Below are positions 1 to 25,816 of a stretch of 25,816 nucleotides of DNA, one piece after another. Numbering within the stretch: position 1 is the stretch's first letter; the number at the start of each line of letters is the position of its first letter. The DNA comes from a virus. Taxonomy: Duplodnaviria; Heunggongvirae; Uroviricota; Caudoviricetes. Below the pieces are notes generated by a model. It saw only the letters and a program-made list of their open reading frames with translations, searched no databases and was not told the origin of the DNA. Where the stretch lies: the IMG/VR virus record IMGVR_UViG_648276652_000013, one strand, 5' to 3'. The translations under genes and the position numbers were made by a program.

Positions 1-153
1 TTTGTGGCGTGTTTTTCTGGCCGGAGGTTCCGGGTATTTCAGGTACCGTCTGACGGTCCGCTCAGAGCAACCAACCTGAGTGGCAATATCAACAATATAC
101 GCACCTTGCTGGCGCATTTGCTTTATCATGTAAAAATCCTCTCTGCTCAGCAT
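1..153 (-). CDS. istA: IS21-family transposase IstA, N-terminal 51 codons (partial, runs off window)
   Basis: Translation MLSREDFYMIKQMRQQGAYIVDIATQVGCSERTVRRYLKYPEPPARKTRHK; HTH motif. Not in the ORF track because it is truncated by the window edge. Confidence 0.65.
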   Translation of the reverse strand, partial: MLSREDFYMIKQMRQQGAYIVDIATQVGCSERTVRRYLKYPEPPARKTRHK

Positions 154-254
154 GAGTGTTCCCTTTGTGGTGTAGGAACCTTAAGGAAACAACATGTTGG
201 GTGGAGCGGACAATCCAAATGGTGAATTACTGTCTTATATCATTGGCGCTGACA
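1..254 (-). mobile_element. IS21-family insertion sequence, left-end portion (element continues beyond window start)
   Basis: Minus-strand ORF from ATG at 153 runs to the window edge and has the N-terminal HTH of IS21-family IstA transposases (IS100-like, from memory). Read inward from 254 the terminus is TGTCAGCGCC, a TGT-type end typical of this family. The acyltransferase reading frame is cut off abruptly at this boundary. The exact end coordinate is an estimate. Confidence 0.65.
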
Positions 255-1065
255 GGTCAATCTATACAAAGATAGATTATTTAGAATAGCCCCCGCTACA
301 ATATTCACCGCACTGATTTCTATAGTCATAATATTGTATTTAACAAACTACCCAAACCCATCAAATTACCTACATGCAAAGGACGTATTTAGGTGGATGG
401 ATATGGGTTTATTTTACAATTATCCACCAATGAACTACTTCAAGGACTCTTGGATTTTTCTTGGTGTCTTTTGGACGCTGCAATGGGAATGGGGATTCTA
501 TTTTTCTCTGCCGTTACTATATCTCTTCAGAAAAAATGGAACAGCTTTTGTTCTGGCTCTGATGTTTATATTTGTTTACTTAATTGGATTCATACCCGCA
601 CTTAACAATATAAAAGCAGGAATATGTATATTATTTGTTGCGGGTATGTTGTGTTATGAACTAATTGGTAAGGTTAGGCTAAATAAAATAACATGCGAGA
701 TTATTTTATTGGTCAGTTTGGTTGGGATTTTCACTTATCAACCAGAGCTATACTCGACCACTATGCTGCCATGGTATTTTTGCATGCTATTTTCGATATG
801 CAAAGGAGCCAATTTATTTGGCGTGCTATCATTTAATGGTTTCGTAAGGCTTGGAAACGCCAGTTTTAGCATTTATGTTTTACACAGCGTTGTTTTGTAC
901 ACGCTTTTCACTTGGATGCATACGAGTAATATAATAAATGAGCCAGAAGACTTTAGGGTTATTTATTTAATTGGCAGCTTTGGAATGGTTTGTGTGATTT
1001 CATCTTTATGTTACGCATTGATAGAAAGGCCATTCATTAATCTTGGCAGGAAAGTTAAATTATAA
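255..1065 (+). pseudogene. Acyltransferase family 3 (O-antigen/polysaccharide O-acetyltransferase-like) integral membrane protein, 5'-truncated
   Basis: The track ORF 334-1065 begins at a TTG, but the frame is open back to 253 and encodes ...DRLFRIAPATIFTALISIV..., matching the mid-protein RxxRIxP motif region of acyltransferase-3 proteins. The protein is multi-pass hydrophobic throughout. The N-terminal roughly 100 aa expected for the family are absent and the frame ends at the IS boundary. Very AT-rich (about 28% GC in a 60-nt sample). Confidence 0.6.
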
Positions 1066-1146: not shown

Positions 1147-1320
1147 TCACACTGGCTCATCAAAATCACACTCTGGGCAAATCCAGCATTGGAAGCCGTA
1201 GCGCTCTCCCTGATACATTTGCGTTCCACATATGGGGCAAAATCTTATCTCGGAGGCTGGATTTGACGCCTGGTTTTCGTTTTCTGGTGACGCATTAGAA
1301 TCTGCCATGATTTTCTCCAT
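1147..1320 (-). CDS. Small zinc-ribbon-like protein (57 aa), function unknown
   Basis: ATG at 1320 overlaps the tail fibre assembly stop (TAATG). Translation MEKIMADSNASPENENQASNPASEIRFCPICGTQMYQGERYGFQCWICPECDFDEPV has two CxxC pairs (CPIC ... CWIC, plus CPEC). Absent from the ORF track because it is under 60 aa. Confidence 0.4.
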   Translation of the reverse strand: MEKIMADSNASPENENQASNPASEIRFCPICGTQMYQGERYGFQCWICPECDFDEPV

Positions 1321-24371: not shown

Positions 24372-24869
24372 TCATTGTTGCCCCCACAAACAGACTTCAC
24401 GCTCAATCTCACGACGAGTCATCAGACCTTTCCATTGCTTACCGCCAGCGTATGTCCAGCGACGTAGCTGATCACATGCGCCTTTGATATCGCCCTGGTT
24501 TATTTTGCGAAGAAGCGTCGATGTTCTGAAATTGCCAGCACCCACGTTGTAAACGAATGAGTAAAGAGCGCCGCGCGTTGTTTCCGGTATATCGACTTTG
24601 ATGTACGGGTTAATTTGTCTGGCGACCGTGGCAAGGTCTTTATTCAAGAGTGTTTTGCATTCTGCTTTGGTATACGTTTTACCGAGCATGATGTCTTTTC
24701 CTGTATGCCCGTGACATACAGTCCATACACCAACAATATCTTTGTATGGTATGTAGCTGACACCTTCCAGACCATCGTTACCACTTGGGCCAGTGATTAA
24801 CACTGATGCTATAGCAATTGCTCCGCCACCAATAGCAGCAGCAACGACTTTTCGTAATGATGGAGGCAT
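24372..24869 (-). CDS. R: SAR endolysin (phage 21 R21-like lysozyme, T4-lysozyme fold)
   Basis: N-terminal Gly/Ala-rich signal-anchor-release segment ([18 protein letters not shown]), then an E...D...T catalytic triad region ([23 protein letters not shown]); start overlaps the holin stop. Confidence 0.9.
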
Positions 24870-25084
24870 TATTCACCTCTCGCAGCCTTGCGCTTATCTT
24901 CTTTAATCTTGAAATAAAGGTTTGTCAGGTACGTCAGCAGGCCAAATACCAGACTACCCAGCACACCGATTGCAGCCCACTGTGACGGAGTTACTCTATC
25001 GAGCAACTGTAAAAACCAGTAGCCAGCACTGCCTGCGGAGGTGCCGTAGGCAATGCCTGTTGAAATTTTGTCCATGGATTTCAT
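24869..25084 (-). CDS. S: Pinholin (phage 21 S21-like), dual-start motif
   Basis: From the ATG at 25084, [71 protein letters not shown]: two TM domains and an M-K-S-M dual start. Strong SD GGAGGTGA upstream. The track ORF's upstream extension is rejected. Confidence 0.9.
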
Positions 25085-25170: not shown

Positions 25171-25816
25171 TGGATTTGCCCCTATATTTCCAGACACCTG
25201 TTATCACTTAACCCATTACTGGCTTGCTGCCGTAGATATTCCCGTGGCGAGCGATAACCCAGTGCACTATGCGGATGCCATTCGTTATAATGCTCGAACG
25301 CCTCTGCAAGGTTCTTTGCTGCCGTTAACCCGTCTGGTTTGGGCATGACACTGATGTAGTCACGCTTTATCGTTTTCACGAAGCTCTCTGCTATGCCGTT
25401 ACTCTCCGGACTCCGCACCGCCGTGTTCTTCGGTTCAAGCCCCAACATCCGGGCAAACTGCCGTGTTTCATTAGCCCGGTAGCATGAACCATTATCCGTC
25501 AGCCACTCTACTGGAGACGCCGGAAGCTCGTTGCCGAAGCGGCGTTCCACCGCTCCTGGCATGACGTCCTGTACTGTTTCACTGTTGAAGCCGCCCGTAG
25601 TGACCGCCCAGTGCAGTGCCTCACGGTCACAGCAGTCCAGCGCGAACGTGACCCGCAGTTTTTCTCCGTTATCACAGCGAAACTCGAACCCGTCAGAGCA
25701 CCATCGCTGATTACTTTCTTTCACAGCCACTCTGCCGGTATGTGCCCGTTTCGATGGCGGTACAGCGGGTTTTCGCTCAAGCAACAGCGCATTCTGGCGC
25801 ATGATCCGGTAAATAC
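25171..25816 (-). mobile_element. IS2 (IS3 family), right-end inverted repeat and 3' portion; element continues beyond window end
   Basis: Terminus TGGATTTGCCCCTATATTTCCAGACA at 25171 matches the IS2 terminal inverted repeat as I remember it, and is followed by the InsD coding sequence. Confidence 0.85.
25182..25816 (-). CDS. insD: IS2 transposase OrfB (InsD), C-terminal part (5' end outside window)
   Basis: ...[41 protein letters not shown] ... [34 protein letters not shown] integrase core of the IS3 family, recognised as IS2 InsD. Confidence 0.85.

Follow-up and report, generated by a model that had tools for sequence, protein, structure and literature searches.

The first 1,065 nucleotides of contig ADWU01000053.1 of Escherichia coli MS 119-7 hold one end of ISEc62, an insertion sequence (IS) of the IS21 family, directly abutted by the 3' part of a gene for an acyltransferase-3 (AT3) membrane protein. 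The contig, which belongs to the draft assembly GCA_000179155.1 and was traced via the 222-aa product EFK43622.1, corresponds as a whole to the 25,816-nt stretch of caudovirus DNA under study (IMG/VR record IMGVR_UViG_648276652_000013), to which we refer below as the window. An earlier note on this DNA, based on its letters and open reading frames (ORFs), had described the gene as AT-rich foreign cargo truncated by an IS21-family element beside the tail-fibre module, and had suggested that a lysogenic conversion gene was inactivated in this way and that the IS may mark a recombination scar in place of integrase or attachment-site sequence. Based on the evidence set out below, we consider it very likely that ISEc62 split a prophage-borne gene for a 375-aa AT3 protein by a simple, recent insertion, that the intact form of this protein is probably an O-antigen acyltransferase, and that its function has been lost in MS 119-7.

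The ISEc62 end and the acyltransferase remnant

The IS portion (positions 1-254, minus strand) is the istA-proximal end of ISEc62, on its left inverted-repeat side: copies annotated as “IS21-like element ISEc62” in hundreds of E. coli replicons match the window in megablast searches from position 1 to about 258 at 99.2-99.6% identity, a match that is near-identical over hundreds of bases and far above a chance-level signal. The contig begins inside the element, and codons 1-51 of the istA transposase (MLSREDFYMIKQMRQQGAYIVDIATQVGCSERTVRRYLK...), which encode its N-terminal helix-turn-helix, occupy 1-153 on the minus strand, as indicated by the translation, Pfam matches (HTH_23, HTH_7) and a partial match to the NCBIfam transpos_IS21 model. 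The element stops at 254 with ...TTGGCGCTGACA, a terminal inverted repeat (243-254) whose last letters are CA and which has its sole copy in the window here. A complete ISEc62 copy of 2125 bp, with annotated istA and istB, is found in strain JNE21-003; window positions 1-254 are identical to it at 254 of 254 sites, and its opposite end carries TGTCAACGCCAA, which pairs with TTGGCGCTGACA at 11 of 12 positions, the two ends forming inverted repeats of the 5'-TG...CA-3' type expected of the family. Megablast matches to intact acyltransferase genes begin at 255 with 100% identity, placing the IS boundary at exactly 254/255 and ruling out a boundary elsewhere.

The AT3 remnant (255-1065, plus strand) comprises the 3' 811 nt of a 1128-nt gene, from the third base of codon 106 (window position 255 being nucleotide 318 of the gene) through the stop codon TAA at 1063-1065; of the 375 codons, 269 (72%) are kept, and the loss amounts to 105 codons plus 2 nt. 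From 255 through at least 1400, the window is 100% identical to 11 complete E. coli genomes in which the gene is uninterrupted and encodes the 375-aa “acyltransferase family protein” WP_062896641.1. No stop interrupts the frame of the remnant from base 253 onward; the nearest in-frame stop before it (TGA, 250-252) lies within the IS terminus. The Pfam model Acyl_transf_3 (PF01757) matches this frame over profile positions 71-322 of 326 (E 1.3e-15; 57.7 bits, with a cut-off of 31), as compared with positions 2-322 and 102.4 bits for the intact allele. These observations bear out the earlier reading of a plus-strand ORF that encodes the C-terminal part of an AT3 membrane protein, stays open back to an IS boundary near 254 and is cut there by an IS21-family element. 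Two start codons define nested ORFs within the remnant, TTG 334 (334-1065, plus strand; 243 aa in the ORF list) and ATG 397 (397-1065, plus strand; 222 aa), the latter corresponding to the GenBank record EFK43622.1 (HMPREF9346_04787); the 243-aa product has no record as a called gene.

The 5' part of the gene on a second contig

HMPREF9346_02067 (P0136), a product of the same strain, MS 119-7, was recovered when the first 108 residues of the intact protein served as query in a homology search. Its gene is located at one end of ADWU01000011.1, a contig of 113 kb, together with an IstB fragment at that same contig end. The 5' 321 nt of the acyltransferase gene on this contig adjoin the other, istB-proximal end of the IS, where the contig stops, and 222 of 223 positions of this IS end are identical to the JNE21-003 copy. 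The partner junction reads ...GACTGGGTC|TGTCAACGCC at positions 10339-10342 of L011, the locus taken from ADWU01000011.1, and continues as ...GACTGGGTC|TGTCAACGCCAAG into the istB-proximal IS end, and the junction in the window reads ...GCTGACA|GGTCAATC. As GGTC stands on both flanks of the IS, with one copy at 255-258 of the window, and only once in the intact gene, it represents a 4-bp target-site duplication made by the insertion. Target duplications in the IS21 family measure 4-8 bp, and the ISEc62 copy of JNE21-003 is flanked by a 6-bp one, as opposed to 4 bp in MS 119-7. There is nothing unusual about the MS 119-7 copy: it shares with ISEc62 and its family the order istA then istB (the istA N-terminus at window positions 153-1, the IstB_IS21 fragment ending the partner contig, both genes in the full JNE21-003 copy), the 5'-TG...CA-3' ends, the short duplication and 99% nucleotide identity.

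Removal of the IS and one GGTC from the joined halves restores a 1128-nt ORF whose product is identical to the 375-aa WP_062896641.1; compared with the allele of strain NT1F10 the rebuilt ORF shows 2 differences, both synonymous. The two IS ends have the same orientation. The matching GGTC, the shared orientation and the exactly rebuilt ORF are the signature of a single simple transposition, and the insertion is recent because the gene is otherwise undamaged; what happened at this locus is one simple, recent transposition of ISEc62. In mechanistic terms, a copy of about 2.1 kb transposed into codon 106/107 of the AT3 gene, duplicating GGTC, and the true locus reads argW, intS, humD, AT3 codons 1-107, ISEc62, AT3 codons 107-375, a terminator, a zinc-ribbon ORF, tail-fibre assembly, tail fibre and baseplate onward. 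The left flank appears to be missing from the window because the draft assembly broke within a repeated IS copy, and contigs ADWU01000011 and ADWU01000053 can be joined via one ISEc62 copy. The description of the gene as truncated consequently holds in that the IS cuts it, but not in the sense of a deletion, as its 5' 321 nt survive on ADWU01000011.1 against the other IS end with GGTC matched; both the second IS end and the 5' fragment that the earlier note placed to the left were found at the end of that contig. The 5' fragment is read on into the IS, which contributes the last 47 residues of its product. Seven fusion proteins, predicted from the 5' fragment with read-through into the IS for duplications of 3-9 bp, gave no match in exact look-ups; the actual fusion product equals the prediction for a 4-bp duplication, annotated from a start 7 codons further upstream.

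The junction in the window lies 254 nt from the end of a draft contig, and it was found neither in the complete E. coli genomes matched by megablast nor, by exact search with its 49 nt, among species-representative genomes, a set that is uninformative on this point as it holds one genome per species. This would accord with an assembly chimera at the contig end, which we nevertheless regard as barely credible, since the reciprocal junction, complete with the duplication to be expected, is present on an independent contig and the break falls precisely at the terminal CA of the IS. A larger rearrangement, that is, a deletion, inversion or IS-IS recombination that displaced the integrase and attachment end, would likewise fit the presence of only one IS end in the window, and there is a precedent in strain 2013C-4974, where an ISEc8 copy in this gene is followed directly by the host gene evgA and the remaining prophage has been lost, an IS-associated deletion. 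For MS 119-7 we hold such an event to be very improbable: both halves of the gene are present, the IS ends that they adjoin are the two termini of one IS type in matching orientation, GGTC is shared and the ORF is rebuilt exactly, whereas IS-IS recombination would give unmatched flanking duplications. Moreover, an intact intS and the tRNA-Arg(CCT) gene argW lie 0.7-2.1 kb upstream of the acyltransferase gene start on ADWU01000011.1, which does not support the proposal of a recombination scar in place of integrase or attachment sequence.

The intact enzyme and the effect of the split

AT3 proteins share a ten-helix transmembrane core, and those that consist of this domain only are about 330-400 aa long. 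The intact allele, at 375 aa, is of this size, as are its homologues (about 360-400 aa in all 120 good-coverage matches listed), and the fragment in the window is without the first three helices. From these sequence features we infer an inner-membrane O-acyltransferase that consists of the AT3 domain only. The profile phrog_3333, “O-acetyltransferase”, matches it with E 1e-46, and its closest characterized relative among phage records is OacB of phage Sf101, with 30% identity over 352 aligned positions (E 2e-38). Sf6 Oac gave no tblastn match at E <= 1e-3, and NCBIfam yielded neither an equivalog nor a model specific to the protein. No relative was recovered from the Protein Data Bank (PDB) by sequence, and a Foldseek search of the PDB gave no match at E 0.001, human HGSNAT, the sole match of high probability, being weakly alike (prob 0.92, TM 0.43, E 0.22); to our knowledge no AT3 structure has been solved. 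The intact allele is rare, being present in about 14 of 5426 complete E. coli genomes, with the exact 375-aa protein on 221 contigs in a large collection; the gene was not found among PLSDB plasmids or, at the DNA level, among sequenced phage records. We know of no earlier description of this AT3 gene or of the ISEc62 insertion in it.

Sf101 OacB places 3/4-O-acetyl groups onto rhamnose III of the Shigella flexneri O-antigen (PMC4159516). It resembles the present protein in being an AT3-only membrane protein of near size (390 as against 375 aa) with the motifs DGxRxxLAxxVxxxH, FFMIT(G/A)(Y/F)LF and WTLxxEWxFY, and in being encoded as plus-strand cargo between an integrase gene and a convergent tail or tailspike gene (PMC4159516; PMC8952252). 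It differs in sitting on a P22-like podovirus backbone, in contrast to the contractile-tail, SEN34-like module seen here, in the low identity of 30%, and in that the MS 119-7 copy is split by an IS. The OacB-group motifs are present in the intact allele, DGxRGxLAxxVxxHH as D41-H55, FFxITG(Y/F)LFxxK as F86-K97 and WxLxYEWxFY as W179-Y188. Alanine substitutions identified seven residues essential to OacB, namely R47, H58, W71, F98, R116, R119 and S146 (PMC8952252). The first four align to R44, H55, W68 and F94, all on the side of the gene lost from the window; R116 and R119 align to R113 (274-276) and R116 (283-285), the RXXR motif at the cytoplasmic start of transmembrane helix (TMH) 3 of the core, which is retained in the window (274-285, plus strand) and invariant in two alignments. 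An alignment of 46 sequences has 20 invariant columns, eight of which (R44, V51, H55, V83, F86, F87, L93 and F94) fall in residues 1-105. Sf6 Oac and Salmonella OafA and OafB belong to the same Pfam family, with an essential R-X10-H motif in TMH1 and RXXR in TMH3 (PMC7448272; PMC9833829); unlike the present protein, OafA and OafB have a fused SGNH domain. Substitutions R14A and H25A in the R-X10-H motif of OafA leave <1% of activity (PMC7448272), and modelling of OafB puts the acetyl-CoA thioester near His25, in a pore bounded by TMH1, TMH2 and TMH9 (PMC9833829). The R-X10-H motif of TMH1 is not on the ORF in the window; like FFxIT, it sits beyond the IS on the partner contig, so the N-terminal catalytic region is indeed missing from the window, as had been noted. 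An AlphaFold model of a 90%-identical homologue of equal length (pLDDT 93, pTM 0.91) is all-helical, with helices 5-19/23-29, 38-65 and 73-99 ahead of the break and a helix 106-135 that begins at it; from these positions it follows that the IS cuts off the N-terminal helix together with TMH1 and TMH2 of the core.

In light of these relationships we propose that the intact protein would move the acyl group of cytoplasmic acyl-CoA via a pore lined by TMH1, TMH2 and TMH9 to a periplasmic glycan. The split would remove the N-terminal helix, TMH1 with R44-X10-H55 and TMH2 with FFMITAFLF, and neither fragment would be expected to form the pore or catalyse the transfer; the putative conversion function would hence be lost in MS 119-7. 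From the mutagenesis of homologues and the loss of motifs we strongly infer that both fragments are inactive. A shorter, self-sufficient acyltransferase of 222-243 aa, or a split enzyme reassembled from the two fragments, might have its 3' part driven from a hybrid promoter-like site at 249-278 (plus strand): CTGACA from the outward-read IS terminus, 18 nt, and TAGATT, with 9 of 12 consensus positions. AGGTGG precedes the ATG codons at 397 and 403, and the 5' fragment keeps the native promoter-like site TAGACT-18-TATAAT just upstream of the gene start, itself at consensus level only and at chance level by scan. However, the hybrid site is no better than chance (4 such sites seen as against 5.1 expected in shuffles), R-X10-H and FFxIT are on the other fragment, the 5' product ends in its IS-derived residues, and the lengths of the listed homologues rule out the 243-aa product as a complete member of a shorter subfamily. 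We therefore give a functional short or split enzyme very little credence. The split AT3 locus of MS 119-7 is a pseudogene, and the annotated HMPREF9346_04787 and HMPREF9346_02067 are its two halves.

Genomic slot, mobile cassette and neighbouring genes

The gene order on ADWU01000011.1 is fadJ, fadI, yfcZ, fadL, yfdF, mlaA, yfdC, tRNA-Arg(CCT) argW, the 385-aa integrase IntS, humD (UmuD/HumD-like, minus strand) and the acyltransferase 5' end, and the genes downstream of the acyltransferase in the window, for tail-fibre assembly, tail fibre and baseplate, are convergent with it. The same placement at the argW locus, directly after intS and humD and convergent with tail-fibre genes, is seen in MS 119-7, NT1F10, 2013C-4974 and S1-INA-02-A. 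In the cryptic prophage CPS-53 of K-12, which shares the argW site and the integrase, gtrABS (yfdG-yfdH-yfdI) stands between intS and the genes for tail-fibre assembly; the AT3 gene thus takes up a slot that is known, in prophages of this type, for O-antigen modification. The two cargoes differ in kind, gtrABS being a three-protein system for bactoprenol-linked glucosylation and the other a single AT3 acyltransferase accompanied by humD; the CPS-53 homology stops 5 nt short of the intS stop codon. humD is divergent from the acyltransferase gene, and a near-perfect LexA/SOS box, TACTGTATATATATACAGCA (positions 9710-9729 of L011), lies just upstream of this UmuD'-like translesion subunit gene, which suggests that humD is SOS-regulated cargo. 

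The GC content is 34.9% in 255-1065 as against 50.6% in the remaining window, in keeping with the low-GC foreign cargo beside a tail-fibre module that had been proposed earlier. Like other such cargo, the gene lies between an integrase and a receptor-binding tail gene, has an odd GC content and carries signals of its own, of which the promoter-like site reaches consensus level only. At its 3' end, a perfect 13-bp hairpin with flanking A-run and T-run (1064-1092; -19.7 kcal/mol, z -3.7, none of 200 shuffles as good; also found by a terminator scan) looks like a bidirectional intrinsic terminator common to the AT3 gene and the convergent tail operon. Low GC, a promoter-like site and a terminator are typical of independently transcribed prophage cargo.

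The likeliest acceptor of the acyl group would be the O-antigen repeat, with a change of serotype and a block on phages that use that glycan as receptor as the predicted outcome. AT3 proteins are functionally diverse (PMC9558356), and the identity of just 30% to OacB, the absence of an NCBIfam equivalog and the failure of Sf6 Oac to match at E <= 1e-3 leave room for a real acyltransferase that modifies another glycan, such as enterobacterial common antigen, colanic acid or capsule, osmoregulated periplasmic glucans or peptidoglycan, in which case “serotype conversion” would be a mislabel. We regard this alternative as somewhat unlikely, though worth bearing in mind: the best characterized match is an O-antigen acetylase, the gene stands in the CPS-53 slot of gtrABS, it travels with a tail-fibre tip, a 53%-identical homologue adjoins a gtrA-gtrB-gtrC operon, and a 42%-identical homologue adjoins a gene for a 734-aa tailspike-like protein in a P22-like prophage. 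We therefore return to O-antigen acylation as the probable activity of the intact gene, which the context and homology support without proving; the label of a lysogenic conversion gene, derived from homology and position, is accordingly a provisional one. Several points weigh against the overall interpretation. The join of the two contigs is deduced from the duplication, the orientation and the contiguous frame. AT3 proteins modify many glycans, and the acceptor here is deduced from homology and position. There is only 30% identity to any characterized enzyme and no specific NCBIfam model. The promoter-like sites are at chance level, and the inactivity of the fragments is argued from mutagenesis of homologues.

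Comparison with related prophages indicates that the gene belongs to a larger mobile unit. Taken as a whole, the window is most closely related to a 42-kb prophage of strain OkiPb01713 (99% identity), which lies between dacD and sbcB, the locus at which Sf101 integrates (PMC4159516), and carries humD-AT3 at the end away from its integrase. An argW-locus remnant matches the window at 99.5% over 255-2526 only, and SEN34-like prophages match from 2456 onward only. Since 255-2526, together with humD upstream on the partner contig, is all that the argW remnants and the OkiPb01713 phage have in common, this segment acts as a mobile, mosaic cassette shared by different prophage backbones; in full it runs from humD through AT3, the zinc-ribbon ORF and the gene for tail-fibre assembly into the region that encodes the C-terminal part of the tail fibre. 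A 90%-identical copy occupies the same integrase slot in Enterobacter asburiae. The 71-bp stretch 2456-2526 within the tail-fibre gene, where homology to the argW remnant stops and that to SEN34-like prophages starts, is 93% identical to the K-12 tail-fibre pseudogene yfdL and looks like a conserved recombination linker for exchanging fibre tips.

The AT3 gene has been hit repeatedly in other strains. IS1 is inserted in the same gene at the window equivalent of 358/359 (in loci L007 and L006), with another IS1 at 1119; ISEc8, of the IS66 family, interrupts codon 318 (window equivalent 892) in strain 2013C-4974 and in several draft genomes; and the OkiPb01713 allele has a 1-bp deletion with a frameshift near codon 329 (window positions ~921-924), giving a 331-aa product. 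At least four independent lesions, ISEc62, IS1, ISEc8 and the frameshift, are accordingly present in this gene. IS elements are known to disrupt Sf101-like prophages and to mobilise or lose oacB (PMC4159516). The hits by ISEc62, IS1 and ISEc8 in separate strains recall the IS decay of serotype-converting prophages in Shigella and E. coli; the recurrent damage may reflect selection, or merely the decay of prophage remnants. More speculatively, the segment from humD to the fibre tip could be exchanged as one self-contained module in which recognition of the receptor is coupled to its modification, the AT3 protein acetylating the very glycan bound by the linked fibre tip and the lesions reflecting selection against modification in some hosts, as opposed to neutral decay or an IS preference for AT-rich targets. 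We consider this doubtful; were it true, the segment would move as such among unrelated backbones, CPS-53-type at argW in E. coli and Enterobacter and lambdoid, SEN34-like at dacD-sbcB. The enzyme is an uncharacterized candidate O-antigen acetylase, every element of the locus is of a familiar kind and the event is routine pseudogenisation; the locus adds one further case of ISs eroding prophage surface-modification genes and matters little beyond annotation.

Beyond the terminator, the last gene of the tail operon is a 57-aa zinc-ribbon ORF (1147-1320, minus strand; Zn_ribbon_TFIIB PF13453, E 8.7e-6; annotated as zf-TFIIB in relatives), which lies within the cassette, between the terminator and the tail-fibre assembly gene, and is kept also in the Enterobacter copy. 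At higher coordinates, also on the minus strand, lie the genes for a 138-aa tail-fibre assembly protein (1320-1736; phrog_188, E 5.4e-17) and a tail-fibre protein with a gp53-like C-terminal domain (1738-2817; PF21882; phrog_1396, E 1e-76). No tRNA genes or Rfam families were found anywhere in the window. Along with a lysis cassette, positions 2202-24735 hold a contractile-tail virion module, with a DUF3383 sheath-like protein, baseplate J, a DUF2612 wedge, TerL and a DUF1073 portal. Prophages of many E. coli strains and the phages vB_EcoM-611R5/606R2 share 97-99% identity with this region and Salmonella phage SEN34 about 82%; in relatives it is joined with lambdoid early genes. The right end of the window is also occupied by an IS, an IS2-like element of the IS3 family (25171-25816, minus strand) with rve integrase-core domains, whose terminus TGGATTTGCCCCTATATTTCCAGACACC begins near 25171, a short distance upstream of the phage holin gene (24869-25084). 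With an IS at each end, both ends of the window are assembly breaks in repeated IS copies, and the prophage carries at least two IS insertions.

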